Positions 2,637 through 63,922 of a DNA stretch of 64,000 bases are shown piece after piece; within the stretch, counting starts at the first letter, position 1, and each line of letters starts with the position of its first letter. Source of the DNA: a phage. Position numbers and translations under genes: made by a program. The notes beneath the pieces are model-generated. The model had not been told where the DNA came from. It saw only the letters and a program-made list of their open reading frames with translations, and did not search any database. The stretch lies in NCBI GenBank assembly GCA_020241125.1, contig GCA_020241125.1_4708.1. One strand, 5' to 3'.

Positions 2637-3458
2637 ATGGAAAAAGTATTTGTTTGTAAGTTGTTTACCAACGGCAATAGCCAACCAATGTATCTGACCG
2701 ATCCTGTTCTAGGTAATCGGAACAGTACCGTATTCAAAGAGGCTTTCGAATACGCTAAAAATAAAGCCGTGAGAACACTGACGTCTGATGACTGTATCAA
2801 CGGTATCACGTGGGCAGAGTTAATCGGTGATGCCGTTCGACACTTCGTTCGGGATGCGAGAAAACGGGAAATCTGTCTCACGACTATTGTTGTGCGTGAA
2901 AACGCAGAAATTTTATCAAACGTTTTGGTTGATTTTAATGACGTTTGTGTGTTTAATCCAGAGAACACGTTTGAACAATACCTTACTGCCCTGAACAACC
3001 AGCTCGGTAAAGATATTCATCCCGAATTCGCCAAGTTAACATATCAGTTACTTTTTGACGACGTCGATCCAAATACGAAGATCGATACCAGCTTATCGCC
3101 CCTGGTAAAGAAATACGGATCGGTTCTCGCTACGGCAACACCCACCACCGATGGTGGTTATGATATCGAATTGGATGATCCATTAAAAGAACAAGAGCCT
3201 ACTGGGGTTAGGGCGGTACATCACAACCTCGTCGTTAAATCTGATGGATGCGATGAACATTACGCTATGATAAACGATGAAAACAATTACCGTTTAAGTC
3301 AAGCGATTGGTGTTCTACGCTATACCGAACCCACTGTTGTAGACGATTATACATCGACAACAACGCACACCACGTGTTTCATTTTCATCTATCCCAATGA
3401 AAGTGTGTACATTACCGACTGCTATGGCAATACCGTAGATAGCTTACGTCGTTATTGA
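2637..3458 (+). CDS. hypothetical protein (273 aa)
   Basis: ORF 2619-3458 begins with TTG; ATG at 2637 with AGGA 8 nt upstream; followed by a classic UUCG-loop terminator at 3464-3491. Confidence 0.7.
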   Translation: MEKVFVCKLFTNGNSQPMYLTDPVLGNRNSTVFKEAFEYAKNKAVRTLTSDDCINGITWAELIGDAVRHFVRDARKREICLTTIVVRENAEILSNVLVDFNDVCVFNPENTFEQYLTALNNQLGKDIHPEFAKLTYQLLFDDVDPNTKIDTSLSPLVKKYGSVLATATPTTDGGYDIELDDPLKEQEPTGVRAVHHNLVVKSDGCDEHYAMINDENNYRLSQAIGVLRYTEPTVVDDYTSTTTHTTCFIFIYPNESVYITDCYGNTVDSLRRY

Positions 3459-3463
3459 TTATC

Positions 3464-3491
3464 GAGCCTGTCCTTCGGGGCAGGCTTTTTA
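3464..3491 (+). terminator. intrinsic terminator with UUCG tetraloop
   Basis: AGCCTGTCC-TTCG-GGGCAGGCT followed by TTTTTA, 6 nt after the stop of 2637-3458. Confidence 0.75.
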
Positions 3492-3561
3492 TGCTGTTAA
3501 ATATCAGGAATAAGAATTAACAAAATAGGAAAATGGTGTGTATATAACACAAAGGAGGGAG

Positions 3562-4802: not shown

Positions 4803-6029
4803 CTACTTCGTTTTCGCCGTTATCGGCTGCGATACTGTAATCTCGACCCGATCGACATCGGTACGTTTAACGATGATAAGGCTGCGTTCATCACCGAATG
4901 GTTCTGAGATCTTACAAGCCTCTTTAAGATTTTCGAGAATCGTGCCATGGGGTTCAAACACCGCAAAACCGGAACTAGCGTCGATTCTTATTAAATATAC
5001 ACGCACATTGTTTACGGTAATGGTGTCATCCGTCTTGAACCCACAGCAGGAGGGTAGACAGAACTGACCATTAACGCAATTAGCTAAGTATGCCTCACCA
5101 CCGAACATTTCTATTAACGTCACCGGTTTAAATGTTTTCTCTGGGAAAGCATTATTAAGAATATCGTTTCCATTCACAAACCAGATCGTTACTTTATCTT
5201 CGGAATACGCTAGTCTGTATGGTTGGGTTGCGGACGCCTGCGCTTTATGCTGGTTAAATAACTTTGATTTTGTCGCAATCACAGCACGACCTTGGGCGTC
5301 AAAGTACAGAACTTCATACCCAACACATCCGATAAACACGCGACGGTTATTAAGTTCCGGAATTCTGACTACTAACGCATTACCATCTTCCGTCGGTGTA
5401 ATACCACGTAGGATGATAGATTCGTTGTTCAATGTTGAGTTGCTCACGATGACGCTTCGCATTACCGCTGGCGACACTATTTCATCTGCTGCAGGTTCAA
5501 GTTGCTCCGCTGTTACAGTCACGGATCTGTCTTCCTTTTCAACTGGCCAGTTGAAAAGGATTGTTTTATTAAGACAAACAATTGGGGTAATTTCGCCGAT
5601 ACTCCGTATCTTGACTGAGGGGCAATTGCACACATACGGAACAAAAACATCAATATCGTTGGTCGCTTCTTCAAGCATGCTAGCATACGCCATTGCTTCG
5701 GGACGATCGGTGAGATGAATAACAGCATAGACGATATCGTCTTTTAACCACGCACGTTTCACTCGTCCTATAACACGATTGATGTCTACAATAACTCTCT
5801 GAGCTTTCATCTCCCATTTTACTGCATCAGTACCACCCGCAACCACGTTCGGTTTATCCGTGTTTACACGATGAAGGAAACTATTGATTATTTCCTCATC
5901 GATCTGGATATCCTTTCTCGCAAAATTCAACAACGGAATAACGAACTCATTGTTACCGCACTTCTCTGCTCCGCGAATGATAGGAGTACACTTCTTGTTC
6001 TCATCTGATCCCCAGATAACTTTAGTCAT
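4803..6029 (-). CDS. hypothetical protein (408 aa)
   Basis: ORF 4803-6056 begins with GTG; ATG 6029 has AAGGAAA RBS; N-terminus MTKVIWGSDENKK; no phosphoesterase motifs seen. Confidence 0.65.
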   Translation of the reverse strand: MTKVIWGSDENKKCTPIIRGAEKCGNNEFVIPLLNFARKDIQIDEEIINSFLHRVNTDKPNVVAGGTDAVKWEMKAQRVIVDINRVIGRVKRAWLKDDIVYAVIHLTDRPEAMAYASMLEEATNDIDVFVPYVCNCPSVKIRSIGEITPIVCLNKTILFNWPVEKEDRSVTVTAEQLEPAADEIVSPAVMRSVIVSNSTLNNESIILRGITPTEDGNALVVRIPELNNRRVFIGCVGYEVLYFDAQGRAVIATKSKLFNQHKAQASATQPYRLAYSEDKVTIWFVNGNDILNNAFPEKTFKPVTLIEMFGGEAYLANCVNGQFCLPSCCGFKTDDTITVNNVRVYLIRIDASSGFAVFEPHGTILENLKEACKISEPFGDERSLIIVKRTDVDRVEITVSQPITAKTK

Positions 6030-6062
6030 TTTCTGTTTCCTTCTTGGGTTTTGCACAAGTTT

Positions 6063-14205: not shown

Positions 14206-14984
14206 GCGAACGTTTCTCCTGTAATGTGTTGCGGATGGCGTAGCATGGTAGCATCCCATTGTACGATCTGGCTTCGGCTTACCCGCATCATGATGGATTC
14301 GTCATCAAGCCCCTGTTGCGCAACCGGCAACCAACGTTCCCCAAGCACCTTCGCTTCAACACGTTTCTTGCGTGGGTTGTAACGCACCTCGCTAACCCAA
14401 GCGAATCCAAGCGGATGGACTACCCGTGGATAAAACATGCGAAGCAATTGATGCATCCGATCCGTTGCCTCCAATTTGCCATCCACCATGTAAGGTTTCA
14501 CCATGGTAAGCTTTTTGGTGTAATACGTTCCAACGGTATGGTTACGCCAACTTGGCAAGGCATGATCCCCTTCTCTCAGTTTGCTATCCGAGTTCATTGA
14601 CCAGACCTGCTGTTTACCGGCCAGCATCGCGTACTGCCGATCAACGCAACGAACCCGATCGGCGAACAATGGATCCAGGACATCATCCACCGCGCCCTTA
14701 TTGCGATAACCGTGATGTACCACCAACCTGCTTGCGCTCATCGATGCGGGATGCTGGCTCTTATGCGCATACAGCCCTCCGTCACCGCGAGCGTCGTAAA
14801 GATAACCGCATGCGCCACGCCATATCACCTTGCCTACGGTTCTCTCGTCTTCAAGCAGCATCGTCGGCCCATCAAGCAAATTGGTGAACCACTGCACCTT
14901 CACGCATTCCGCTTGGACATGCTCAGGTAATGCCTGATACTCTTTTTGGGTGTATAAGGTATCAAAAATGATTTCTTCGTTCAT
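14202..14984 (-). CDS. hypothetical protein (260 aa), first gene of a leftward unit
   Basis: ATG 14984; promoter-like motifs at 15065-15078 and 15116-15132 lie upstream on the minus strand. Confidence 0.65.
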   Translation of the reverse strand: MNEEIIFDTLYTQKEYQALPEHVQAECVKVQWFTNLLDGPTMLLEDERTVGKVIWRGACGYLYDARGDGGLYAHKSQHPASMSASRLVVHHGYRNKGAVDDVLDPLFADRVRCVDRQYAMLAGKQQVWSMNSDSKLREGDHALPSWRNHTVGTYYTKKLTMVKPYMVDGKLEATDRMHQLLRMFYPRVVHPLGFAWVSEVRYNPRKKRVEAKVLGERWLPVAQQGLDDESIMMRVSRSQIVQWDATMLRHPQHITGETFA

Positions 14985-15078: not shown

Positions 15079-15115
15079 CTTACGCGTCGCGTTCATGATA
15101 CCATGCATCATGAAG

Positions 15116-15132
15116 GTAATATAGCCGTGAAA
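15116..15132 (-). promoter_or_regulatory. candidate phage early promoter, second exact copy
   Basis: Identical 17-mer GTAATATAGCCGTGAAA (plus strand) upstream of the leftward small-gene cluster. Confidence 0.45.
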
Positions 15133-15422: not shown

Positions 15423-15811
15423 CTGTGCATTACACTACGTTACATGCTAGTTAAATCGGATAACTCAAAAAAACATTTGTGATACTCTTCTTCACGTTGT
15501 TCATCAGAGTATCTCGTCTATACTCATTGCATTCGTATACGACATAACCGTTACACGCTAACGCTACGCTTATAGCTTGATAACTCTAAGGATAAAAACA
15601 TAAACTCGCTTCGCTCGTTTAGTTTTTCTTTTTCTTAGAGTTATCCTGTTGCTCGTCTCTAAAGGACTTCGCTCCTCCCCCGTCCCCCGAAGGGGCCGAG
15701 GTCGTGGAAATTTTACTTTCCAAATACATTTACAACATCTGTAAACTTTTACTCCAGGTACTTAATCTTATCATTAGAAATTATAAAAGAGAAAATAAAC
15801 ACAAACATAAA

Positions 15812-15846
15812 CCTTCCCCCGACCCGTAAGGGAAGGAGGAAGGGAG
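15812..15846 (-). terminator. conserved hairpin, family copy 3
   Basis: CCTTCCCCCGACCC-GTAA-GGGAAGGAGGAAGGG, 9 nt 3' of the stop of 15855-16748. Confidence 0.65.
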
Positions 15847-15854
15847 AGATTAAA

Positions 15855-16748
15855 TTATTCGGAAACGTTATAACCGAATACTGCTTTACCGTAGGTGTGA
15901 GTACCGTCAGCTAACGACAGCACCAACACATGGTTGTATGTAGCGTTAACGCCTTTATCGGTAGACCCGGTGGTAGCACCGTTATAGACAAAGGTAGCTG
16001 TTTGCAGATTGGTTTTCAGTTCATTGATGATATCATCACTTACACCAGTCTGTTCTTTAATCAGGGTGGTCAGGTTACCCGCTAAGCCTGCATCGATCTT
16101 GGTATCGTTACTGGTAATAGCTTGTAAACCTGCGGTGTAAGTACTGAAGTCTAACGGATAGGTTAACAGACGTGCTGAGGTCTTGGTACCATCGCCTTCA
16201 TCAACGTAGGTTAAGTTACCCAGATTGGTAACCTTGATGATGTTAGCCAGATCCAGCGTGGTGTTATAAACTTTAACTTGAACAGAGCCATACCACGCCA
16301 ACGAATCTTCTTTGGCTTCCAGGGTGATCGTCTGGATACCATGCTGGTCGAAGGTAACCGGCGTAGCTAACGTTTCGGCTTTGATGTCTTTCGCTTTATC
16401 CAGGAACTTCTCACCGGAAGGCGTGATCATACCGTAGCGTTGAGCTACAAGGTCAACCACATCACCGATGGTGGTGTTCGCCTCAACGTTAACACGTACA
16501 GCGATCTTCTGGAACCACTTAGCCAGATCCAGACGATGGTAGGTGACATCTCGGTTATTGAAGTAAGGGGTACCTTCACCAGGACTAAGTGTTAAAGTTG
16601 CTTCTGGAGCAGAAGGATTCTTTTCTTTAAGGACGTATTTAAGGTCGGTATATTTAAAGCTGGCACCAGTGTCAGCGTTAAGCTGGTTGATCTCATCAAC
16701 GATAAGTTGCCAAGGTGTTTTTAAAGTAAGCGATACTTGAGCAGTCAT
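15855..16748 (-). CDS. abundant (codon-optimised) protein, member of a six-gene paralog family
   Basis: ORF 15855-17024; ATG 16748 with GAGGAA RBS; strong host-like codon bias; motifs YHRLDLAKWF and LAWYGSV shared with 27809-31428 genes; followed by conserved hairpin 15812-15846. Confidence 0.8.
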   Translation of the reverse strand: MTAQVSLTLKTPWQLIVDEINQLNADTGASFKYTDLKYVLKEKNPSAPEATLTLSPGEGTPYFNNRDVTYHRLDLAKWFQKIAVRVNVEANTTIGDVVDLVAQRYGMITPSGEKFLDKAKDIKAETLATPVTFDQHGIQTITLEAKEDSLAWYGSVQVKVYNTTLDLANIIKVTNLGNLTYVDEGDGTKTSARLLTYPLDFSTYTAGLQAITSNDTKIDAGLAGNLTTLIKEQTGVSDDIINELKTNLQTATFVYNGATTGSTDKGVNATYNHVLVLSLADGTHTYGKAVFGYNVSE

Positions 16749-16887
16749 TTTCTTCCTCGATAGTTGGTACATCACTCTCAAAAGATGTAAGTGTTTACAG
16801 AAATTAATATATTTTATATTAAATGTGAATATTATGGAGAACGACTCCGAATCTCCTTTTCGACCATCAAAATCAGAGGACACGAAC

Positions 16888-17632: not shown

Positions 17633-17664
17633 CCCCTCCTCATCCGTTATTGGGTGGGGGGGGG
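17633..17664 (-). terminator. degenerate family-like hairpin with G9 tract
   Basis: CCCCTCCTCA ... TGGGTGGGGGGGGG with the same upstream context (AATAAACACAAACA) as copy 3; 3' of the endolysin gene. Confidence 0.35.
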
Positions 17665-17727
17665 TCTTATACGTCTTTATGCGTTCCGTTCGTTCTGGAG
17701 CGTTTTAGGACGGTTTATGATGGTGTT

Positions 17728-20551: not shown

Positions 20552-23149
20552 TTATAACGTGACTGTACCTAATTTGGTTGTCTTATTGAGATTAATGACT
20601 GAGATCTGGGTATCGCTGGTCGTGATGGTGCCGATATTAACGCGCTGTCCTTTATCATCCTCTTGCTTGTGGATGGTTAATTCCAGCTCTAACTGGTTAC
20701 CATTAGGAACAACGGAAACGTACCATGTTTTATTACCTGGTGAGCTATTATAGTCTTTTAGGTTATAATGGCCTTTAGGTAAGGTCATGGCCTTACCAGC
20801 AAACAAACATGAAATATCCTCGTTGATATAAACGTCGAAACCGGAAGAAGCGATGACTGTTGAGGCCATTATTCGAGACGCGACGATACCACGATTATAG
20901 TCGTCGATTGTGGTACCTATGACATTGAATACTTGCCCCCCGTTACCCATAATGGTCGATTCGCTAGTGTTTACGTAGCCGATACCCCAAGTCGGATGAA
21001 TGTTCCAGCGGTACCCACTGTTTTGTAAATATGTATACAAGTCTTCATAGGCCGCATTCACCCAACTACCATCACTTTTTCGTCCAGCCCTAAATTGGAA
21101 TGTATTGCTATTTCCAGATGTTCCTCGGCCAAGAGGGACATGTCCCGCCACTAACCAACCATCTGTACTTTGCATATACGCGAACGAACCGTACGCTCTG
21201 TTATCGGCCCAAATATTCACGGTATCAACACGTTCAACGTAGGCGATCACCTTTTGTACGCCGGTTATAGCGATCGAACCCTTGCGTGCCGACACACTAA
21301 CTTCAGCAATTACGACACCCATTTTCCGCTGGCTGCTGTTAAATCCCAATACAACCATTAAACACGGTGCGTTTGTTGTTTCTGGAGGAATCGTTATCGA
21401 TTGTTTCCAGTCGGTGATTCCGCTGAGTTTTGTTCCAGTATATGCGTTCCAGACGGTTTGTCCAGCCGATTTCAGATTCTGTTCAGAAATAGAAATGGCC
21501 TCGCCCTCAGGGATTAACGTGTCGTAATTGAGACCAATGTTGCTGGATAGACGAAGGTCGTTTAAGTAAGATCCGCTGAGTGTGACGTTACCGTTACGAT
21601 AAATTGTCAAGAATGGCGCAGCCAGGGAGTTTAATACCGTAAAGTTACTCGATGGCATGAAACCATAGACATCGATGCCATTACCGTGGTAATGGTAGTT
21701 TGTCCAACTACCTTGATAACTTACGGTACGTGCATCGTAGTGGCCTTGTCCAAGACCGCTGCTGGATAACGTGTATATCTTGGTTGCTGATAGAAATGCG
21801 AGATATCCATGCGCTGCCAGAGCTCCAACTACCCTGTCTTTTATCTTTAACCAAGCTGAAGTATACAACGTACTGTCGGGATTCATTTTGGCTATTTCAT
21901 CGTAAGCTGTGCCTGCGAAGTTTCCGATAGTGTACGTACGTATATCCGGCTGTCCGTTATTGTCGTTCTGTACAGCAATTACTTGCCCAGAATCATTGAT
22001 ATCGATATTACCGATACAGTTGTGAGCCCCCCACACCCAATATCCATCTTTATAATTGGATTCTCCTTGTGTAAATGTCGACGGTCCTCGCCACGCGATG
22101 CCGTTCGATTCGGCGTAGTAGGTAGCTTGTCCCGATCCTGGATTCATGGCGTATCTGTTATTGGTCGGGTCAAAATCGATGTAAAAATGATGCATTCCTT
22201 GACGTTGACGGTTGTCCCGATCATTTGTCCACCACGACGAACCGACCAGAATTCGCGCCTTACCATTTTTTACAGTGGACCATAAACGTATTGCGGCGCG
22301 CCAGACGATTTGACCGATCCCGTTGGACGGGAAACTATTCGTACTGATGCTGTTGCAGACAACGAGCTCGCTGCTGTTGTTTATTTGAGTCCCTTCAATT
22401 GTAACGCCGTTTATGTTAGTAATCAGTGTTGCCGATACACTACCCCCTGTAGGGGCGATAGAGGAACGTTGAACGGTGTAAATTTTTAGTGATAATTTAT
22501 AGCCGCTCCGAATAGCTATACCAATGTAAATAGTTCCATTAATTTCCCAACAACAAACATCGGGCATTGTTTCTTTGAAATCGGATAAAGCACCGTCGAT
22601 ATACATCGCAACGTGTTTGCTGGCGTCGAATGTGCCGTCCGTTAACGCGATGAACATTTTGGCATTATTACCGTTGATATCAGCCGCTAATCCGAGTAGT
22701 ATGTTGTTCTGATGACAGTAAATGGCTTTAGGCGCTAGATCCAACATAGCTGGTTGGTACTGTCGGCTTGTTGGTATTACGCTAGTAACTGCGCCATTTT
22801 GATCCGTTTTACAAATAACGTAATATACACCGTGTATGATGCTGTTTGTCGCTGACCTCAGTAGGACGATCGTCCCGTCAGATTCACGACATATACCGTA
22901 ATGACGATAGTCGGTGATTAAACCGATAGCGCCATCGGCCGAACCTTCGATTGCCAGAGGAAAATAACTTTGGTCCCCAACCTGTTCGATATCGGTTGCG
23001 CCGATATCGATGTATTTTTCCATCTCAGTGTTGAACTCAGCGGTACTGTAGGCACCGAGATCGCTCGCCTTTAGTCCCGTTGGGTTGTCACGACTGGCGA
23101 TACGTGTAGTAACGCTACTCACCAGTTCGCTGAACTTTTTCATTGCCAT
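20552..23149 (-). CDS. tail fibre or tailspike (865 aa)
   Basis: N-terminus MAMKKFSELVSSVTTRIASRDNP is shared with the two small downstream genes (adaptor-like); long beta-rich, G/N/S/T-rich body; GAGGTG RBS. Confidence 0.7.
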   Translation of the reverse strand: MAMKKFSELVSSVTTRIASRDNPTGLKASDLGAYSTAEFNTEMEKYIDIGATDIEQVGDQSYFPLAIEGSADGAIGLITDYRHYGICRESDGTIVLLRSATNSIIHGVYYVICKTDQNGAVTSVIPTSRQYQPAMLDLAPKAIYCHQNNILLGLAADINGNNAKMFIALTDGTFDASKHVAMYIDGALSDFKETMPDVCCWEINGTIYIGIAIRSGYKLSLKIYTVQRSSIAPTGGSVSATLITNINGVTIEGTQINNSSELVVCNSISTNSFPSNGIGQIVWRAAIRLWSTVKNGKARILVGSSWWTNDRDNRQRQGMHHFYIDFDPTNNRYAMNPGSGQATYYAESNGIAWRGPSTFTQGESNYKDGYWVWGAHNCIGNIDINDSGQVIAVQNDNNGQPDIRTYTIGNFAGTAYDEIAKMNPDSTLYTSAWLKIKDRVVGALAAHGYLAFLSATKIYTLSSSGLGQGHYDARTVSYQGSWTNYHYHGNGIDVYGFMPSSNFTVLNSLAAPFLTIYRNGNVTLSGSYLNDLRLSSNIGLNYDTLIPEGEAISISEQNLKSAGQTVWNAYTGTKLSGITDWKQSITIPPETTNAPCLMVVLGFNSSQRKMGVVIAEVSVSARKGSIAITGVQKVIAYVERVDTVNIWADNRAYGSFAYMQSTDGWLVAGHVPLGRGTSGNSNTFQFRAGRKSDGSWVNAAYEDLYTYLQNSGYRWNIHPTWGIGYVNTSESTIMGNGGQVFNVIGTTIDDYNRGIVASRIMASTVIASSGFDVYINEDISCLFAGKAMTLPKGHYNLKDYNSSPGNKTWYVSVVPNGNQLELELTIHKQEDDKGQRVNIGTITTSDTQISVINLNKTTKLGTVTL

Positions 23150-24218: not shown

Positions 24219-26372
24219 TTATAACGTTTCGAAGTCGGTTGCTTTGATAACCGCGTTGAAGTTGGCAAGGAATTCCTTAAGCAGTGCTTGGAAGACATCA
24301 CGAAACGCTGTGTTCGTCTGCAAGCTGGTTAAATAATCGTTCTTAAGGTAATCGCTCAGCTTACCGATCTTCTGCATCTTCTCGCCGTCTTGGTTCTCTC
24401 CAGGTTCTTGGCTGTTGATGTTAACCCATTTGATCCCTTCGAGATCGCCATCGGCAAGGAAGTTGGCGGGTGTCTCATCGTCGTTCAGGATTTTAATCGT
24501 ATCACTGGATTCAATGCCACCGTAAGCTTCCAGAAGCTGGTTGACTGTTAGCTTATTGGTGTTGATTGAACCATTGACACCATCGATACCGATGCCTGCA
24601 CCTGTGATGGATGTCGCCGAAAGATCGATCGGTCCGGTTAACTTACCACCGTTGATCGGTAACGCACCAACTTGCTCAGCGGTGTGTGTATGGTCAGCTA
24701 ACGCCGCAAACGCCACGATAGACTTATATGTCGAATACGGCGTCATATACGCTGATTGGTTGGTGTTGTCAGCCGCTTCAGTATCGGTAGCGACATTAAA
24801 GTTCTGCACGTTGCTGAGACCGACCTGCACCTTCGTTACTTCATGCGGGTTGTTCTTATTGACAACGTGTGCTGCAAAACCATCACCAGCTAAAGCAGTG
24901 ATTGCCGCTTTTGTCGCAGCCGGTGTCATATAGCGGTTGGTTGCTTCACCCGTTTGCGCCTCTTCGTCGGAAGCAACAGGATAGTTCTCAACGCTTCCCA
25001 AACCGACCTGAGATTTTGTTACTTGGTGTGGGTTTTCGGTATTCGCAATATGACTACTGAACCCTTGACCCGCCAGTTGCTCGATTGCGTAACGAACAAG
25101 TATTGGTGTCATGTACTTGTTGTTAACTTGACCATCGATAGCTTCTTGGGTGGTGGCAACCCCGAAGTTTTGCACGCTCCCCAACCCAACTTGCGCTTTC
25201 GTAACAGCGTGGGGGTTATTGGTGTTACCGATGTGATCGGTAACCGTTGGGGTGATTAATCCTGCGATAGCGGCTGCCGTGGTCGCAGGGGTCATGTATT
25301 TATCGTTAGCAACACCCGCAGCAGCTTCTACGTTAGATGCTACACCGTAGTTCAATACATTTCCTAACCCAACCTGCGCCTTGGTTACCCCGTGGGGGTT
25401 GTTCTTGTCTCCGGTATGGGTTGTCAACGTAGCGTTAACGTTATCGATACGCGTGCTTAAGCTATCAGTGATTGCTTTGATTGCGGCTCGTACACCCGCT
25501 GGTGTTGTGTACAGATCTGTGGCCGTACCGGTAATGGTTGTATTACTATCGGCTACACCGTAGTTCTCAACGTTTCCGAGTCCCACCTGGGCTTTCGTTA
25601 CCTTGTGTGGGTTGTTGTAGTTGCTGATGTGCGCAGCAGCACTATCACCACTCAGGTTAGCGATCATCTTACGCGTCATCGCCAACGTCATGTACAGATT
25701 TTCACCGATGGTTTCCAGATCGCTCTCGGTCGCCGTTGTGAAGTTCTGAACATTTCCTAACCCAACTTGAGCCTTGGTTACGCCGTGGGGGTTATCGCGA
25801 CGATTCTCGTGCTGCAGCAATGCAGTCATTGCTTTATTGAACCCTTCTTCAAGCGGTTCTTTCAATGATTCGATTGCAGCCACCACATCGTCCCACGTCA
25901 TTGTGTCGGTTTCGACATTATGTTGGTGGTTGATTGGCGGGAATACGGAAGGAACGTCAGCAACCTTTTCCCAGAACGTAACGCGAGGGTCGTAAAGGTT
26001 GTTGGCTAAAACGTTAAGAATTTGTTGTTGATCAAGTGTAAACTCACCCCCCAGTGAATAGTAGTTCAGTTGCAACTGTCCACTGAATGCGGTGTCCAAC
26101 AGCATGATGGAACCGTATAATTCCAGGCCGGTCAGCGCAGCCATGGCACGGAAGGGGTGAGTGCATAAAAAGTCAACGCCTTCTTCCAGATACGCGTTTG
26201 TTTCAGGGTTGTAGATCTTTAACCCATTGCGAAAATATGGCGCGTATTTAGGAACGAGAAAGTTAAATCCGGTCCCCGTGGAAGGACGGACAGTGACGAG
26301 TTCTTCTGGAACCCATGCGCCATCCAAATTCCCCTGCGGGTTATACGGAAGGCGTTTAATTTCATCTGTCAT
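24219..26372 (-). CDS. tail fibre (717 aa) with NPHxVTKAQVGLGNV repeats
   Basis: At least seven NPHGVTKAQVGLGNVQNF-type repeats; followed by hairpin plus T-run 24175-24212. Confidence 0.85.
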   Translation of the reverse strand: MTDEIKRLPYNPQGNLDGAWVPEELVTVRPSTGTGFNFLVPKYAPYFRNGLKIYNPETNAYLEEGVDFLCTHPFRAMAALTGLELYGSIMLLDTAFSGQLQLNYYSLGGEFTLDQQQILNVLANNLYDPRVTFWEKVADVPSVFPPINHQHNVETDTMTWDDVVAAIESLKEPLEEGFNKAMTALLQHENRRDNPHGVTKAQVGLGNVQNFTTATESDLETIGENLYMTLAMTRKMIANLSGDSAAAHISNYNNPHKVTKAQVGLGNVENYGVADSNTTITGTATDLYTTPAGVRAAIKAITDSLSTRIDNVNATLTTHTGDKNNPHGVTKAQVGLGNVLNYGVASNVEAAAGVANDKYMTPATTAAAIAGLITPTVTDHIGNTNNPHAVTKAQVGLGSVQNFGVATTQEAIDGQVNNKYMTPILVRYAIEQLAGQGFSSHIANTENPHQVTKSQVGLGSVENYPVASDEEAQTGEATNRYMTPAATKAAITALAGDGFAAHVVNKNNPHEVTKVQVGLSNVQNFNVATDTEAADNTNQSAYMTPYSTYKSIVAFAALADHTHTAEQVGALPINGGKLTGPIDLSATSITGAGIGIDGVNGSINTNKLTVNQLLEAYGGIESSDTIKILNDDETPANFLADGDLEGIKWVNINSQEPGENQDGEKMQKIGKLSDYLKNDYLTSLQTNTAFRDVFQALLKEFLANFNAVIKATDFETL

Positions 26373-26476
26373 GATGCGCCCTTTACAAGTTGTTAGTAAG
26401 TATGGGATACCCTGGGGTATCCTGTGTTAACAGCGGTAAAATATTACTGTAACTATAAAATAAGGGGGCCTCTCCC

Positions 26477-43271: not shown

Positions 43272-43287
43272 TCACCTAGGTAATGTA
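43272..43287 (-). promoter_or_regulatory. conserved 16-mer TCACCTAGGTAATGTA (candidate promoter or operator)
   Basis: Exact repeat of 51447-51462; about 145 nt upstream of the start at 43128, just after a family hairpin. Confidence 0.4.
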
Positions 43288-43330
43288 AGCGTCAAATTTT
43301 TTCTATTCGCAACAATAAACGGCATAGAAA

Positions 43331-43459: not shown

Positions 43460-45682
43460 TCAGTTAGTCTGAACAGGCAGCTTGATGTTTTCAGTGTAGA
43501 CCTTACGCAGGTTCACAACGTTAATCAGACCCAGCAGCGGGCAGTTGTTAACGAAGCGGCAGCGCGGCTGAACCATGGTTTCTTTAGAAACCTGACCGTT
43601 ACGGGTAACCTGAGCAACAGATACCAGTTCCGGTACATACAGGAACATACCGAAGGTCAGCGGATCCGGAGAACCCTGGATACCACGAGACAGGGTCACG
43701 AAGATCTTATCGCGCAGCATGACGTTCGGGTTATCTACAACTACGAAGTTGAAGCTTACACCAACGGTACGGAAATCACCATCGGTCTGCAGGAACTGCG
43801 GGATGTAGTTGTCAGTTGCTACTACGCAACGCGGTTTCTCATCAGCGTTGGAAGACAGCAGCTGCAGAGCTGGCTGATAACCAGACTCGGAGTACATGCG
43901 GTATGCCATCTCACGAATCACGTTCATGATCGCAGCAGACACTTCAGCACGACGTTCTGCAGTGGTGGTACCCTGAACAGATTTCTCCAGGTCCAGATTG
44001 ATTTCTTCGAACCACGGACGGATCAGGTAACGACCGAAACCTTCGATCTGGATGTCACCGAACTGACGGAAGCGAGAGGTCGCAACCGCTTTCAGTGCGT
44101 CTTTGTAGCTGAACAGTTTCTCAACCATCAGGTTGTCGAAACGTGCGTTAGCAGCTTGGATCAGAACGTCCAGGTCAGCAGCGTTTTCTTCCCAATCCAG
44201 CGGACGAGGAATGGAGAACGGAGCCAGCAGGCCGATTGCGTAACGTTCTTGCTTCATGTTGAAGTCAAGGTGCTTACCGCGCTCACGACGGTTGCTGTTG
44301 TTACGGCGGATACGCAGTTCGTAACCAACCAGTTTGAAGCTCAGGTCTTCAGCCAGTTGTTTGAACTCTTCGCTCTTACGCGGTTGTTCGATGTTGTCCT
44401 GATCAACCAGGCGATACAGTTCAGCGTTAGCGCCGTTAACACGCAGACCGGCTTTCTCTACGTTGGAAGAACCGTAAACTTCGATCGCCAGCTGAGCAGC
44501 AGATTTCGCATCGATGATGTCCTGCAGCGCTTCAGCTTTCGCGCCTTTAACGTCTTTGGTGTTCTCATCAACGAAGATGGAGTGGGTGTCGAACGCCAGG
44601 GTCATTTTGCGGAAGTCGCCTTCCAGGGATTTCTGGAAACCGTTGGTGATCAGACCAGATACGTCGAACGGTACGTAAGAGGTTTTGCTGTGCTTGGTAG
44701 ATTTGATTTCCACCAGGATTTTGGTCAGCGTGATCTGGGCGTCCAGCGCGTCGGTGTTGTCGCTGTAACCGTTAGCCAGGATGCTATCGTCTTCAGCAAT
44801 ACCGATCATGTCGATCAGTTTATCAACAGCCAGGTAAGACGTTTTGTAAGTTACGCCTTTAATTTCGATGTCGCGCGGAGCAACGATAGCTTTGTCAACG
44901 AAGTACTGTGCGTTAGCATCGTCAGCACGATAGATCGGATGCAGATCGGTCACGTCGTTGGACAGAACGTCGTTGTACATGAACGCATCCAGCAGCGGAC
45001 GACGTACCCAATCAGCCGGAGTACCGTCAGCGTTACGACGCAGGTGGTTGAACACCAGCGGACGACGGAAAGATACGTCGTAACCGATCTGGTTCGGAGC
45101 CAGAACGATGGTGTTGTACAGTTCGTTACCCATGCGGCTCAGACGAGAAGCCTTCACGTTGAACACAACGGAGTACGGCATCATGTCACGCAGTTCTTTC
45201 TGGTCGTAGGACAGCTGAACCAGTTCTTCAGATTCGCAACCGCAGGAATCAGCAGCCATCATGACGAAGTTAGAGCTGTCAACTTCACGGCCAGACGGAG
45301 TGGTGCTGATGTTCATGGAACGTGCTTGTTTAGCATATTCTACCGGGTTACCATGAGCCAGCATGATCAGTGCTGCTGCACGAGCCTGCTGTGCGTTCAT
45401 GGTGAACAGCTGTTCTTCAATACGCTGCTTCTCTTCCGGAGTGGTGGTTTCGAAGCCCAGCATGGACAGAACCGGTTCTTCGGCTTTACGGATGTCGCTG
45501 CTGAAGCTCTTAACATCCATTTCGTTAACCAGTTTGTCCATGGATTTGAAATCAACCTTAGAAGCAGATTCCATAGACAGGAAGGTGTTCTCCAGACCTT
45601 TGTCTGCTGGTTTGCTACCATTAGCGGTCAGGAACTGGCGAGTGGCCGCGACCTGTTGGCTAAGAAGGGTTTTATCATTCAT
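43460..45682 (-). CDS. candidate major capsid protein (740 aa)
   Basis: Strongest codon optimisation in the window, so the plus-strand ORF 43385-45685 is an antisense shadow; AAAGGA RBS; size fits jumbo-phage capsid proteins (recollection, not verified). Confidence 0.6.
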   Translation of the reverse strand: MNDKTLLSQQVAATRQFLTANGSKPADKGLENTFLSMESASKVDFKSMDKLVNEMDVKSFSSDIRKAEEPVLSMLGFETTTPEEKQRIEEQLFTMNAQQARAAALIMLAHGNPVEYAKQARSMNISTTPSGREVDSSNFVMMAADSCGCESEELVQLSYDQKELRDMMPYSVVFNVKASRLSRMGNELYNTIVLAPNQIGYDVSFRRPLVFNHLRRNADGTPADWVRRPLLDAFMYNDVLSNDVTDLHPIYRADDANAQYFVDKAIVAPRDIEIKGVTYKTSYLAVDKLIDMIGIAEDDSILANGYSDNTDALDAQITLTKILVEIKSTKHSKTSYVPFDVSGLITNGFQKSLEGDFRKMTLAFDTHSIFVDENTKDVKGAKAEALQDIIDAKSAAQLAIEVYGSSNVEKAGLRVNGANAELYRLVDQDNIEQPRKSEEFKQLAEDLSFKLVGYELRIRRNNSNRRERGKHLDFNMKQERYAIGLLAPFSIPRPLDWEENAADLDVLIQAANARFDNLMVEKLFSYKDALKAVATSRFRQFGDIQIEGFGRYLIRPWFEEINLDLEKSVQGTTTAERRAEVSAAIMNVIREMAYRMYSESGYQPALQLLSSNADEKPRCVVATDNYIPQFLQTDGDFRTVGVSFNFVVVDNPNVMLRDKIFVTLSRGIQGSPDPLTFGMFLYVPELVSVAQVTRNGQVSKETMVQPRCRFVNNCPLLGLINVVNLRKVYTENIKLPVQTN

Positions 45683-45831
45683 TGAAAGTATCCTTTACAG
45701 AATTAACTTATATAAGTCGGTCGATAGACCATAGCGTACACGCGTGCATGCGCCACTATAGTATCAGTAAACACTTACCGTTATTGAGGTCGTGATACAA
45801 CACTAAAAATGCCGCATAACTTTTCCCTACG

Positions 45832-46452
45832 TCACAAACGACGCAGGCGATAATGGATGGAACGATTGGTGCAATATGAACGGAACAGCGGCAATTGCGC
45901 AACTTCCGCAAGACTCATATTAATTCGCAGGTGTTCAATAACGGCGCTGTAGTTATCAGCAATACGATCGCTCAATAACTCTTCTGCCAATAAAGGAAGA
46001 CAATCGACAACAATCGCGATCACATCCTCATTAACATAACGCACCCGAACACTCAACGGACGTTTGTCTGGGCTGTAAGTTGGATCCGCCAAACGACGTT
46101 CAATATCACGCGGATAGCTCGTCAGTAAATGGTAATAACCATTGTCATAACGATTGATGTACTCACACAGCACATCAACATTCTTCTCTGGCGGCAAACC
46201 TGTTTCGTCATAGTGATACGCAAACATACCACCAAGCAGGTTGTTAAGATGAACCGCAGGGTTCGCTTGTTCGTGTTCTTTCGTGATGAAGAAAGGCACG
46301 TTCTGGGCTGCGAAATAAAAACCTACATCATTGGGCGATAGTATGCCGAAAAGACTTTTAGGGTCTAATAACACCTGTAAGTCATCACGCGCATTTCGAA
46401 TAATCGCGTGTTCTACCCAATTCGGAACGACGAGATATCGGAGTTCCTTCAT
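45832..46452 (-). CDS. hypothetical protein (206 aa)
   Basis: ATG 46452 with AGAGG RBS; immediately upstream of the capsid candidate. Confidence 0.65.
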   Translation of the reverse strand: MKELRYLVVPNWVEHAIIRNARDDLQVLLDPKSLFGILSPNDVGFYFAAQNVPFFITKEHEQANPAVHLNNLLGGMFAYHYDETGLPPEKNVDVLCEYINRYDNGYYHLLTSYPRDIERRLADPTYSPDKRPLSVRVRYVNEDVIAIVVDCLPLLAEELLSDRIADNYSAVIEHLRINMSLAEVAQLPLFRSYCTNRSIHYRLRRL

Positions 46453-49554: not shown

Positions 49555-49629
49555 CGTTTTTACCTTTCTATGTTAGGTGGGTTGCGGATAGAAGAATCAA
49601 TGCATAGACTGATTTAAGTTTGTTAAGGT

Positions 49630-50532
49630 TTACTTAGTCTTCGAGTTACAAGGACTGACATGTTGTTGTACTCGTTGAATCGTATCGTAGTACGGGTTAG
49701 ATTGGTTGAACATGCTGTTGTGTGGATGATAGCCGTATGGCGCATTTTGCCTTGTTGATGAGAAACCTTGTTGAGAAGGACGATTTGAATTAACCGCGAG
49801 TACGTAGTAAACCAAATTTTGACGGTCGAACGTTCCTTCGTTTTTGAAGGTGTCGGCGTAGGTGTTTATCGCTGGAGCGAGTCTATCACCATCGGCGGTA
49901 ATAATTGTACCGTCTGGGTAAACTTCACGAACGACGCACCATGTTCCGATAAGAACGTCTTTGGGCGGCGTATTGCCGTATCCGGTTGTAACGGTAAGGT
50001 AAGTATCGAACCCTTCAGAACAACAAGGATGACGATAGATAGGTCCTGTCATTTCCGTTCTATCGGTATCGTCGCATTTCTCTATCGAGAGCGATGGTGT
50101 GTCGGTTTTGAAATTGTCAAATTCTTTCTTTAAGTCGATTACAGGTTCTTTCGTATAGTACTTCTTGATTGCTTTGACGTAAAGATCAGGAACGGTTGTC
50201 AGCATTCCGTTATACCTGATTCTCAGGTTTTCGAGTAATCCAAAGATACTCGCGCATGCTTGTTCGCGAGGTTTTGTAAGATAAGAGATCCCCCCAGGAA
50301 CGCTGGGATCTTTGAGAAAGAAGATTGCGTTATTGTCGTTGTGCAGTGCGTTGAAGAAAACGATTGATTCGATATATACGGAGCATAGGCTGTCGTTGGC
50401 GTCGTCAGATAACACCCAGATGCACTCATCGGTCGTCTTGTTTAAAAGTTCTGTTTTGTCCACCAAACGTTGTTTCATTGCGAGGAAATGTGCCTGTTGT
50501 TCAGCGGATAATTCACGATAAATAGTGGTCAT
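49630..50532 (-). CDS. hypothetical protein, tandem paralog of 50618-51391
   Basis: ORF 49630-50610; ATG 50532 with AAGGAG RBS; IYRHPCCSEGFDTYLTVTTGYG ... VREVYPDGTII aligns with IYIHPECHTTYDRYLTITGG ... IREIYPDGRIV. Confidence 0.7.
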   Translation of the reverse strand: MTTIYRELSAEQQAHFLAMKQRLVDKTELLNKTTDECIWVLSDDANDSLCSVYIESIVFFNALHNDNNAIFFLKDPSVPGGISYLTKPREQACASIFGLLENLRIRYNGMLTTVPDLYVKAIKKYYTKEPVIDLKKEFDNFKTDTPSLSIEKCDDTDRTEMTGPIYRHPCCSEGFDTYLTVTTGYGNTPPKDVLIGTWCVVREVYPDGTIITADGDRLAPAINTYADTFKNEGTFDRQNLVYYVLAVNSNRPSQQGFSSTRQNAPYGYHPHNSMFNQSNPYYDTIQRVQQHVSPCNSKTK

Positions 50533-50617
50533 GTTGAGCTCCTTGATTACGATAAGGATGATTGCGGTTTTGTGATGCTGGTAGGGCCCTAAACAAAGGA
50601 GCCCTACCAATATTGGG

Positions 50618-51391
50618 TTACTCAGGATCGGCGTAGAAATGGTGAGGATAGCCGGAGTACGATCCCGCGTTACCGGCTATGGATTCTTTCTGGGAATCGA
50701 CGACGAGCGCATAGAACTGTCGGGAATTTGTTAGCGTTGAGAAATAAGCGGAAAGGACTTTTTCATTCAACGCATCGCAAGGTAGACAGGTGCGACCGCA
50801 AAACGTCACGATACGGCCGTCGGGATAGATCTCACGAATCATTCTCCACTCACCGATATCCACTGGTGATGGCGCTGCTACACCACCTGTTATCGTTAAG
50901 TAACGATCGTACGTGGTATGGCATTCAGGATGAATATAGATCGGCTTGTTCGTTTCGACAGGTTCCGAAGTATCTCGACGACTAAGAAGCTCAACGACTT
51001 CAAGATAAATCGTTGGTAGATCGCGGAGAATACCGGTGCTACGACGTTTCTTTGTGATTCGCGGACGAATCTCGTTGAGAGCGTATTCGAGCTTACGTTC
51101 AGCTTCGTACGCATCGAGTTTTATCAGGCGACCCGGTTCATCGGAATGATCCTGAGTTACGTAAACGAAATACGCGTTGCCTTTTGCAGCGTGAAAGATT
51201 CGAGCGACCTTAAATGTTTCTACGGTACGATACCCAAGGCGCGATTGATTTTCCACAGGAGAAAATATCCAATGTCGTCCTTCGTCCGCCTCAACAATTT
51301 CGTTGAAACTATCCGTTTGTTCTGGGACCTGGTAGTCAGCCATTAATGTATCAAGAGCGTCGTCAGCCAGTTTGATGTAAATATCTGTCAT
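50618..51391 (-). CDS. hypothetical protein, tandem paralog of 49630-50532
   Basis: ORF 50618-51604; ATG 51391 with GAGGAT RBS; promoter-like motif and inverted repeat just upstream. Confidence 0.7.
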   Translation of the reverse strand: MTDIYIKLADDALDTLMADYQVPEQTDSFNEIVEADEGRHWIFSPVENQSRLGYRTVETFKVARIFHAAKGNAYFVYVTQDHSDEPGRLIKLDAYEAERKLEYALNEIRPRITKKRRSTGILRDLPTIYLEVVELLSRRDTSEPVETNKPIYIHPECHTTYDRYLTITGGVAAPSPVDIGEWRMIREIYPDGRIVTFCGRTCLPCDALNEKVLSAYFSTLTNSRQFYALVVDSQKESIAGNAGSYSGYPHHFYADPE

Positions 51392-51424
51392 GTTTGTATC
51401 CTCGGCTATTAAGAGAAATTTACA

Positions 51425-51462
51425 GTGATAACAGTAACCGTTGTTATCACCTAGGTAATGTA
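51425..51462 (-). promoter_or_regulatory. conserved 16-mer plus adjacent 9-bp inverted repeat
   Basis: GTGATAACA-n8-TGTTATCAC (51425-51450) overlapping TCACCTAGGTAATGTA (51447-51462); about 35-70 nt upstream of ATG 51391. Confidence 0.4.
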
Positions 51463-51495
51463 GTCGCGAAATAAACTGGGTTAGACAGTATATGA

Positions 51496-56748: not shown

Positions 56749-56800
56749 CGCAGATTCCTGTTTGAAAGATAAGATATCACATGATGGTCGACAGCATAAA

Positions 56801-56820
56801 GCCCACCCCGAAGGGCGGGC
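56801..56820 (-). terminator. GC-rich hairpin 3' of the 1125-aa gene
   Basis: GCCCACCCC-GAA-GGGCGGGC; on the minus strand followed by TTTATG; not a member of the conserved family. Confidence 0.45.
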
Positions 56821-56836
56821 TGTTTATGCGTACGGA

Positions 56837-62770: not shown

Positions 62771-63922
62771 TTATGCTTTTTCGGTTACAGCGTCGAAGTA
62801 TTTCGCTGCAGCAAATACAGCATCCGCATATTGGCGTATCGAAGCGCGAAGAATCTTGGTTGACAATACAGTACTTAAGCGCGCCATTTCAGAAACCGCG
62901 CTTACATAAGGACGGATGGTTTCACGATCGGCTTCAGGCAGCTTGTCGAGCATATCACCCCACTTCGTTTTGATTTTCATGCCGTTGAGTTTAGCGGTAC
63001 GCTCCACAGAACCGGCCAAAGCTTCAACCATGTGGAAATAAGAGGAGTCTATCGTACGGAACACGTTAAGATAGGAAGTCAATGCACCTTTCAGTTCGTT
63101 ATCGTCTTTGAAAATGTTTGCGTTCTCTATCTCACCGGTCACCGTCGTCTCGGCTTCAACCCGAATATTTTTCACCAACGTATAGGCTTTAATCGCATCG
63201 TGTTCGTTTTCGACGGCGTCGAGACCTTGAATAACGAATTCCTTCCCACCGCTCTCTGGAAAAACAACTTTATTCAGAGCTGATTTGATCGCCAGCAGGT
63301 ATTTGTCTAAGATAGACGGAAGCAGTGTGAGGTCAGTGAGGTCTGCGACCTTTTTATTGATATCAGCCACATGCTTAAACAGTGAATCCGTCCCGCTTGC
63401 GCTTGCAGCGAGTTGTTCGATATGCTTGCTTGCAAACACGGCATTCGCTGATTTAGCATTAGGGAACATATTGACCATATTTCCAGTGGGCTTATCCAAC
63501 TGTTTGATATGGCGCTCACCTTTATTCACAGCGGTTGCGATCTTGACAATTTTGTTGTATGCAACGACCAGGTTCTTGAACAACATCTGGAACAGTTTGA
63601 ACAGTTGCTCAGCGATATTCGCAATGATTACCCAAACTGCGTATAACGCTTGTGCTGCGCGTTCTTTAAAGCCTTCCAGCACAATAGCTTGCCCTTCCAC
63701 CAAACGATCGTCAGCTTGGAACATGTCTTCATCGGACATCCCCAGGTTAGCCGCTGACGTCGAAGCAATCTGACGGATAAGGGCGATGTCGCTCGCACGT
63801 GCTTCAGGGATCGTAGGTGCGATCATGTACGCGGTATCTTCCAGCGTTGCTGAGGTACGCACCGCAATTTCAGCCAGTTCGCTGGATTCGTCGATCGTCT
63901 CGTCGGTGCGTCGAACCACCAA
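62771..63922 (-). CDS. hypothetical protein (383 aa; start uncertain)
   Basis: ORF track start is TTG; first ATG is at 63826; the upstream context runs toward the window edge. Confidence 0.65.
   Translation of the reverse strand: MVVRRTDETIDESSELAEIAVRTSATLEDTAYMIAPTIPEARASDIALIRQIASTSAANLGMSDEDMFQADDRLVEGQAIVLEGFKERAAQALYAVWVIIANIAEQLFKLFQMLFKNLVVAYNKIVKIATAVNKGERHIKQLDKPTGNMVNMFPNAKSANAVFASKHIEQLAASASGTDSLFKHVADINKKVADLTDLTLLPSILDKYLLAIKSALNKVVFPESGGKEFVIQGLDAVENEHDAIKAYTLVKNIRVEAETTVTGEIENANIFKDDNELKGALTSYLNVFRTIDSSYFHMVEALAGSVERTAKLNGMKIKTKWGDMLDKLPEADRETIRPYVSAVSEMARLSTVLSTKILRASIRQYADAVFAAAKYFDAVTEKA

Follow-up and report, generated by a model that had tools for sequence, protein, structure and literature searches.

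Early promoters of phage phiKZ carry a conserved AT-rich core (PMC7598289), and in its middle promoters an A-rich repeat precedes a TACT motif whose center is 22 nt upstream of the start (PMC8244752). The late promoters consist only of T(-3)ATG(+1) (PMC7598289, PMC4666361), which is bound by a beta-like subunit (PMC12809450). The purified phiKZ non-virion polymerase showed no middle-promoter transcription in vitro, for which a recruiting DNA-binding protein has been suggested as one explanation (PMC4666361). Escherichia phage vB_EcoM_Goslar, the E. coli model for nucleus-forming jumbo phages, has a phiKZ-like annotation in which both a virion and a non-virion multisubunit RNA polymerase are encoded. 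We found no published promoter map or transcription start sites for Goslar in the literature searched, which included work on ChmC (PMC11077065), on virion structure, and a jumbo-phage review.

The window, by which we mean the whole 64,000-nt stretch of phage DNA analyzed here, is from a close relative (~96% identity) of Goslar, a nucleus-forming E. coli jumbo phage of the Chimalliviridae. Identity to Goslar was 95.5% in noncoding DNA, 96.2% in coding DNA, and 98.8% in the capsid region. Several hypervariable patches (5508-6035, 14549-14892, 20852-22285, and 63176-63447) were unaligned to Goslar by blastn, the rest being ~96% identical, and the gp022-gp026 region was also less conserved (~92%). 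A window-specific segment of 1,773 bp (49614-51386) stands in place of 82 bp of Goslar and holds two ORFs, 49630-50610 and 50618-51391, with a shared early-type promoter upstream; since it replaces Goslar DNA downstream of that promoter, it looks like a variable early-gene slot. Pfam returned no match for either window-specific ORF or for the fibre gene, no Rfam covariance model matched at gathering score in the whole window, and the window holds no tRNA or tmRNA genes. For statistical power, the whole Goslar genome was used (237,307 bp, 247 CDS, 7.06% noncoding).

The first-pass annotation had proposed that the heptamer CTGTAAA, in places extended to TTAATT(T)CTGTAAA, recurs as a late-promoter or leader element upstream of the capsid gene (gp041 homologue), gp022, and ORF 50618-51391, with a TTGTAAA variant before the fibre gene. 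All four quoted strings are in the window as written, on the minus strand:

45694-45700, minus strand: CTGTAAA, 11 nt before the capsid ATG (45680-45682)
16794-16800, minus strand: CTGTAAA, 45 nt before the gp022 ATG at 16748
51419-51425, minus strand: CTGTAAA, 27 nt before the ATG at 51391 (ORF 50618-51391)
26382-26388, minus strand: TTGTAAA, 9 nt before the fibre ATG at 26372

Whether the heptamer is enriched depends on the background used. Window-wide, on both strands, 12 copies were counted versus 8.26 ± 2.83 in shuffles, which is not an enrichment; restricting the count to the window's noncoding DNA (4,446 bases) gave 4 copies versus 0.72 ± 0.82 expected (P = 0.002). The noncoding excess arises because two of these four copies (15739-15745 and 16794-16800) belong to a longer GTAA-N5-TAC box, of which they are the left halves; the remaining two (capsid and insB) are within chance. 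Among Goslar genes, CTGTAAA lies upstream in sense orientation at 4 of 247 (0.85 expected; 5 of 500 shuffles reach 4), and it was absent from the words enriched in an unbiased k-mer analysis of Goslar upstream regions. The proposed extension did not hold up: upstream of gp022, TTAATT is polymorphic among four Goslar-like genomes (variants TATTAATTT, TAGTAATTT, TATTGATTT, and TACTGATTT), and the sequence from CTGTAAA onwards is invariant in the same four. As for a leader element, all copies lie where a 5' UTR is expected, but the four sites are not one element.

We think it probable that CTGTAAA occurs here in unrelated contexts, that the capsid copy is part of the translation-initiation region, and that the capsid promoter is an upstream box resembling the phiKZ middle type. 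In the capsid mRNA, the AAA of the heptamer would begin the Shine-Dalgarno sequence AAAGGA, with an unstructured, A/U-rich leader before it. Capsid transcription would most likely begin further upstream, directed by a box of the form C-(G/T)-GTAA-N5-TACT at 45764-45781 and starting near G45747 in CATGC, with TTATGC (45814-45819) and TATG (45730-45733) as possible additional starts. The box at gp022 is of the same form, with CTGTAAA as its left half. In the Goslar lineage, such a box may correspond to the upstream element of phiKZ middle promoters, and the RNA polymerase machinery of the phage itself would presumably recognize it within the phage nucleus. Throughout, we infer function from sequence statistics and analogy.

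The box was found via k-mer analysis and pairwise comparison of upstream regions, with all 44 Goslar copies of CTGTAAA aligned. In Goslar, the upstream regions of gp022 and gp245 have a common 39-nt element (score 35, among the top 20 of 8,515 pairs; those ranked higher, where they could be placed, involved genes with early promoters or with terminator hairpin/TTATGC elements). The core common to the two is a dyad, GTAAA-NN-TTTAC, whose five exact Goslar copies are all intergenic, and of the 23 Goslar matches to GTAAANNTTTAC with one mismatch at most, 15 are in noncoding DNA, which makes up 7% of the genome. A regular-expression test of spacing, which involves no training and is free of PWM selection bias, gave 13 noncoding versus 5 coding copies of GTAA-N5-TACT in Goslar (31-fold by density); the other spacings (N2 to N4 and N6 to N9) gave 0 to 2 noncoding copies each. 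The 19 best PWM matches in Goslar are all noncoding (a partly circular result), and T.TG with its G 16 to 20 nt after TACT follows 7 of the 19 (versus 1.4 in random noncoding controls), both statistics being somewhat inflated because the PWM was refined on noncoding matches and the T.TG window was chosen post hoc. A gene start is faced by 15 of the 19 boxes, at 12 to 243 nt downstream; three of the other four are antisense between same-strand genes, and one lies between convergent genes. Divergent spacers hold 7 of the 19 versus 15% of noncoding length (P = 0.014). By column, the consensus reads C, K (G/T), G, T, A, A, a, n, t, T, T, T, A, C, T. A perfect dyad makes up the core (G1/C12, T2/A11, A3/T10, A4/T9, and A5/T8), and the flanks are asymmetric (position 0 never A; position 13 T in 15 of 19). 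Within GTAAA (positions 1 to 5), A3 is kept in 17, A4 in 18, and A5 in 11 of 19 boxes, and TACT is invariant or nearly so. The five boxes common to the window and Goslar show 0 differences in 90 positions, compared with the 95.5% identity of noncoding DNA overall (P = 0.016). The box is spacing-specific, noncoding-specific, and conserved, and it marks the phage at ~19 intergenic sites; no mention of it was found in the literature searched. We infer that GTAA-N5-TACT is a promoter element, with starts predicted downstream.

The six best PWM matches in the window are all noncoding:

45764-45781, minus strand: canonical box ACGGTAAGTGTTTACTGA (core GTAA-N5-TACT at 45766-45778), 81 nt upstream of the capsid ATG
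26433-26450, plus strand: box GCGGTAAAATATTACTGT in the divergent spacer between the fibre gene (gp029) and gp030; 19.2 bits, an exact pattern match
16784-16801, minus strand: box TCTGTAAACACTTACATC, 35 nt upstream of gp022; 14.4 bits
10061-10078, minus strand: box GCTGTAATCTCCTACTGA, 96 nt upstream of an SbcC-like gene (gp012 homologue)
15738-15755, plus strand: orphan box TCTGTAAACTTTTACTCC, with CTGTAAA at 15739-15745, antisense to gp022
49619-49636, plus strand: weak box

The capsid box is the top match in the window (20.6 bits, an exact match to GTAANNNNNTACT) and lies 65 nt further upstream than the capsid heptamer. Two of the spacers flagged by the first-pass annotation thus do hold promoter-like elements, the canonical boxes at 45764-45781 and 26433-26450, although not at the coordinates it had given; moreover, the latter faces gp030 rather than the fibre gene, 26 nt before the gp030 ATG. 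On its sequence and position, the box at 45764-45781 is the best candidate for a promoter element of the capsid gene. Three candidate starts can be placed upstream of that gene:

45745-45749, minus strand: CATGC with predicted start G45747, the G 19 nt after TACT; would give a 65-nt leader
45814-45819, minus strand: TTATGC, an alternative TATG-type start (predicted G45815), 13 nt after the gp042 stop and 131 nt before the capsid ATG; would give a 133-nt leader
45730-45733, minus strand: TATG (in CGCTATGGTC), a third possible start of phiKZ late type, 48 nt before the capsid ATG

We favor G45747 because T-n-T-G sits 16 to 20 nt after TACT in 7 of the 19 boxes. The candidate at 45730-45733 is weak, since TATG alone is barely enriched upstream of Goslar genes (51 versus 39.8 regions). 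There is no TATG within 45686-45720, and neither a sigma-70-like promoter nor an intrinsic terminator was found within 45400-46000. All candidate starts lie upstream, so that 45686-45720 would be in the leader under each of them. The capsid upstream region is 99 to 100% identical in nine Goslar-like sequences (the GenBank Goslar record and eight related loci, Goslar itself among them, taken from collections of viral and metagenome sequences), and the interval 45686-45720 is identical in all nine. The next relatives beyond this set have only ~34% capsid identity. With upstream regions this nearly identical, phylogenetic footprinting and conservation are uninformative at this locus.

At gp022, the promoter reading of the heptamer survives, and only there: CTGTAAA at 16794-16800 forms positions -1 to 5 of the box, and the predicted start region reads GATG, with the G at 16770. 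In the variable gp022/gp023 spacer, four genomes agree from the box through GATGTA, except for one spacer position and one base before ATG, and both flanks vary. The sequence TATATTAA at 16804-16811, considered as an early-type core, is not conserved. The gp022 product is an abundant virion protein (DUF7941 in Pfam). As judged from these sequences, this is the one flagged site with a real promoter-like signal.

Other box-like sequences are less readily placed. Around the orphan box, the noncoding block 15650-15790 is invariant in four Goslar-like genomes, whereas the adjacent gp022 is only 89 to 93% identical at the protein level; downstream of the box are an A-rich stretch and then a stable hairpin (15812-15843; z = -3.1). 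The block with its hairpin could be the source of a short RNA or of an antisense transcript. The weak box-like sequence at 49619-49636 is at the edge of the window-specific segment. Outside the window, the spacer between gp218 (tail sheath) and gp219 in Goslar (197133-197159) holds a box-like dyad, GTAATATTTTAC, flanked on both sides by divergent TTATGC with the G ~12 nt from the dyad center, a geometry unlike that of the other boxes.

Might GTAAA-NN-TTTAC instead be an operator for a dimeric DNA-binding protein (a repressor, activator, or nucleoid-type protein), or a target for recombination or an endonuclease? The perfect dyad of the conserved core speaks for this, as do the copies between convergent genes and antisense to genes and the weak copy at the edge of the insertion. 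Nevertheless, the flanks are asymmetric at positions 0 and 13, the boxes are biased in orientation towards genes, and a positioned T.TG lies downstream, so that we regard an operator as unlikely; an activator operator and a promoter element are, in any case, not mutually exclusive. One version that would join the two, in which C-K-GTAAA-NN-TTTAC-T is the docking site of a dimeric, DNA-binding phage factor recruiting a phage RNA polymerase to middle-class promoters in the phage nucleus, is speculative, and we would give it a small chance. If true, it would answer the question of how middle promoters come to be used in phiKZ (PMC4666361), and Goslar on E. coli would be a tractable system for finding the recruiting factor.

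We return to the promoter-element reading of the box, under which the capsid-proximal heptamer itself falls in the leader. The flagged interval and the ribosome site within it are as follows:

45686-45720, minus strand: 3' end of the capsid leader, with A/T-rich TTATATAAGTTAATT, CTGTAAA, and the ribosome site
45691-45696, minus strand: AAAGGA, the Shine-Dalgarno sequence of the capsid gene, separated from the ATG by 8 nt

AAAGGA shares the last three bases of CTGTAAA, and 8 nt separate the end of AAGGA from the ATG, the spacing preferred in Goslar. In Goslar as a whole, 61 of 247 genes have AAGGA in the 30 nt before them, its end 6 to 11 nt from the ATG, and AAAGGA occurs in 26 genes, mostly 7 to 8 nt before the ATG (the genome-wide spacing peak is at 6 to 8 nt). 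Unbiased searches of Goslar upstream regions also returned ribosome sites of the AAAGGA/AGGAG type. The capsid-proximal copy would act only in translation. A structured capsid leader was considered and rejected (not significant; z = -0.09 and -0.94). The fibre site has a similar arrangement:

26379-26388, minus strand: TTGTAAAGGG before the fibre gene, with AAAGGG as the Shine-Dalgarno sequence at 6 nt from the ATG (26370-26372)

By sequence and spacing, the TTGTAAA variant is part of this predicted Shine-Dalgarno sequence. The leader region of the fibre-like gp029 also contains a perfect 8-bp dyad, GGATACCC-CA-GGGTATCC (26405-26422, minus strand).

Alternatively, UGUAAAGGA could act at the RNA level in the leaders of very abundant virion proteins, by extending the ribosome site, enhancing translation, or binding a protein. 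The related TGTAAAGG occurs eight times in Goslar, three times at the ribosome-site position (versus 0.07 expected unconditionally), and these three are only gp29, gp41 (the capsid gene), and gp58, which is present at ~2150 copies per virion. Published copy numbers per virion are ~580 for gp22, ~2140 for gp23, and ~2150 for gp58, all three ranking among the most abundant Goslar virion proteins (bioRxiv 10.64898/2026.04.21.720040). However, the TG prefix is found in 3 of 15 TAAAGG-type genes (P ~0.06, an estimate), so that, given how common TAAAGG sites are, the three TGTAAAGG sites are suggestive but not significant. Other abundant proteins (gp23, gp22, gp53, and the sheath protein) are without TGTAAAGG, and no complementarity between the extra bases and 16S rRNA is known. 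We therefore consider a leader element improbable, although at gp41 and gp58, the two head proteins of highest abundance, TGTAAAGGA could do more than serve as an ordinary Shine-Dalgarno sequence. AGGATAC was rejected as a shared extension of the ribosome site, since only two genes have it.

The capsid-proximal copy can also be read as a near-box, TCTGTAA-AGGA-TACTTTC, with full flanks and N4 spacing. Were this a functional off-spacing box, it would bind the same factor or polymerase as the other boxes, for instance as a decoy, a roadblock that tunes capsid-gene transcription, or a second, internal promoter. Only two noncoding N4 copies exist in Goslar, and both are flanked by C-K on the left and TACTT on the right; C-K is missing from all three N4 copies in coding DNA. 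Yet two copies are too few for a claim. The ungapped PWM score is below 9 bits, no T.TG lies 16 to 20 nt downstream, and a start there would fall in capsid codons 4 to 6. The spacing test moreover shows strong selection for N5 only. A start downstream of the capsid heptamer would also remove the ribosome site, so that a promoter at this position could not serve the gene. A functional role for the near-box is in our view improbable, and its likeness to the box is probably fortuitous; the translational reading of the capsid-proximal copy is the one that we retain.

The third flagged site has a promoter of another type. TATATTAC is 30-fold enriched in Goslar upstream regions, with the extended consensus TTTCACGGCTATATTACTTAnGTGA. 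A PWM built from 12 Goslar sites of this type located four early-type (virion RNA polymerase) cores in the window, given here together with the hairpin at the third site:

51447-51465, minus strand: core GACTACATTACCTAGGTGA, upstream of ORF 50618-51391; 29.8 bits
2510-2528, minus strand: core GGCTATATTACTTAAGTGA, upstream of the gp004 homologue
15108-15126: further early-type core
43272-43290: further early-type core
51424-51451, minus strand: 10-bp hairpin at the predicted 5' end of the early transcript (-14.5 kcal/mol; z = -2.0)

The core at 51447-51465 is also present in Goslar. A phiKZ-type early promoter was thus found at the third gene and not at the capsid or gp022 site. The last two pairs of the hairpin use the C and T of CTGTAAA (51419-51425). 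Goslar has TTGTAAA at this site and a partner G changed to A, a compensatory replacement of a G-C by an A-U pair; between the window and Goslar, one U-A pair of the same hairpin is also replaced by U-G. As predicted from pairing and position, the third-site heptamer is the flank of a hairpin downstream of an early-type promoter and not a promoter core. Predicted early transcripts of the TATATTAC type often open with a hairpin directly after the conserved GTGA (window 51424-51451 and 15089-15126, both minus strand; Goslar 113790, 166062, and 226688).

That the capsid, gp022, and 50618-51391 genes share CTGTAAA or TTAATT(T)CTGTAAA as a late-promoter core has the noncoding enrichment (4 versus 0.72) in its favor but is scarcely credible: the heptamer lies upstream of only 4 of 247 Goslar genes, the ATG distances differ (11, 45, and 27 nt), the capsid copy overlaps a ribosome site, the copy at the third gene comes after an early-type promoter and has a C that covaries with the base it pairs with, and the TTAATT extension is polymorphic. 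Position and covariation contradict this suggestion of the first-pass annotation, and at the capsid site it is wrong to read CTGTAAA as a common late promoter. The outcome for the heptamer itself is mostly deflationary.

An EM motif search of Goslar upstream regions returned the ribosome site, the early promoter, and a terminator hairpin. The hairpins form a nearly identical, GC-rich family in Goslar (e.g., CCCTCCTTCCCTTACGGGTTGGAGGAGGG; 65 PWM matches) and are very often followed directly by T(T)TATGC(C/T)GT. TTTATGC occurs in 11 sense upstream regions of Goslar (0.9 expected) and TTATGC in 15 (2.6 expected). In the window, members of the family are found at these positions:

3451-3494, plus strand: terminator hairpin
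17640-17682, plus strand: terminator hairpin
56794-56829, both strands: terminator hairpin

Hairpin and TTATGC together look like a combined terminator and TATG-type restart signal; the TATG extension after hairpins was not seen in the phiKZ stretch examined. In Goslar (NC_048170), the annotated starts of gp047 (49584-49772), gp111, and gp183 are the ATG of TTATGC after a terminator hairpin. These annotated starts are probably wrong, since better ATGs preceded by ribosome sites lie downstream.

Ribosome sites can in this way be separated from promoter-like signals, and coordinates can be given for early TATATTAC cores, GTAA-N5-TACT boxes, and hairpins with TTATGC. Such a provisional signal map would improve the annotation of transcription units and guide knock-down and engineering designs aimed at ribosome sites, and the box offers a sharply defined bait sequence for whatever recognizes middle promoters in these phages.

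How do these signals compare with those of better-described phages? The layout of the capsid leader, with AAGGA 8 nt from AUG after an unstructured A/U-rich leader, is like that of T7 gene 10, whose leader combines a Shine-Dalgarno site with A/U-rich sequence; the capsid gene, too, is the most highly expressed structural gene. The likeness is one of layout alone, and the capsid leader has no sequence identity to the T7 enhancer. The middle promoters of T4 carry a MotA box, and T4 transcribes with the host polymerase. By analogy only, the Goslar box is likewise a short upstream box at a fixed distance that could recruit polymerase via a DNA-binding phage factor; however, it has no sequence similarity to the MotA box, and T4 differs in using the host enzyme.

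The comparison with phiKZ covers all three promoter classes. The TATATTAC core of early promoters is common to Goslar (TTTCACGGCTATATTACTTAnGTGA), the window, and phiKZ (TTTGAGATyTATATTACTAA), but the flanks are lineage-specific, and Goslar-type copies are often followed by a 5'-terminal hairpin. As a likeness to the TATG of phiKZ late promoters, T-n-T-G is present at the predicted start after 7 of the 19 boxes, and TTATGC is strongly enriched upstream of genes; in contrast to phiKZ, the Goslar TATG has the longer form T(T)TATGC(C/T)GT, in most cases right next to a conserved terminator hairpin. With regard to middle promoters, no GTAA-N5-TACT was found in phiKZ noncoding DNA between 30 and 62 kb (32 kb), so that the link is a resemblance in architecture only. 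Candidate phiKZ middle promoters read AAATAATACT, A-rich followed by ATACT, whereas the Goslar box has a run of T after its A-rich part and is more sharply defined, with a fixed GTAAA-NN-TTTAC dyad and a C-K left flank. The order of elements is nevertheless the same: the Goslar box has A-rich sequence immediately before TACT and then, after ~20 nt (22 nt in phiKZ), a TATG-like predicted start. In both phages, these elements precede structural and DNA-metabolism genes, and both phages have their own multisubunit RNA polymerases. The phiKZ chmA gene has an early and a middle promoter, and the Goslar chmA/gp245 spacer has an early core and a box. On this analogy, the Goslar box would be a putative, lineage-specific promoter of the phiKZ middle type and would work like one.
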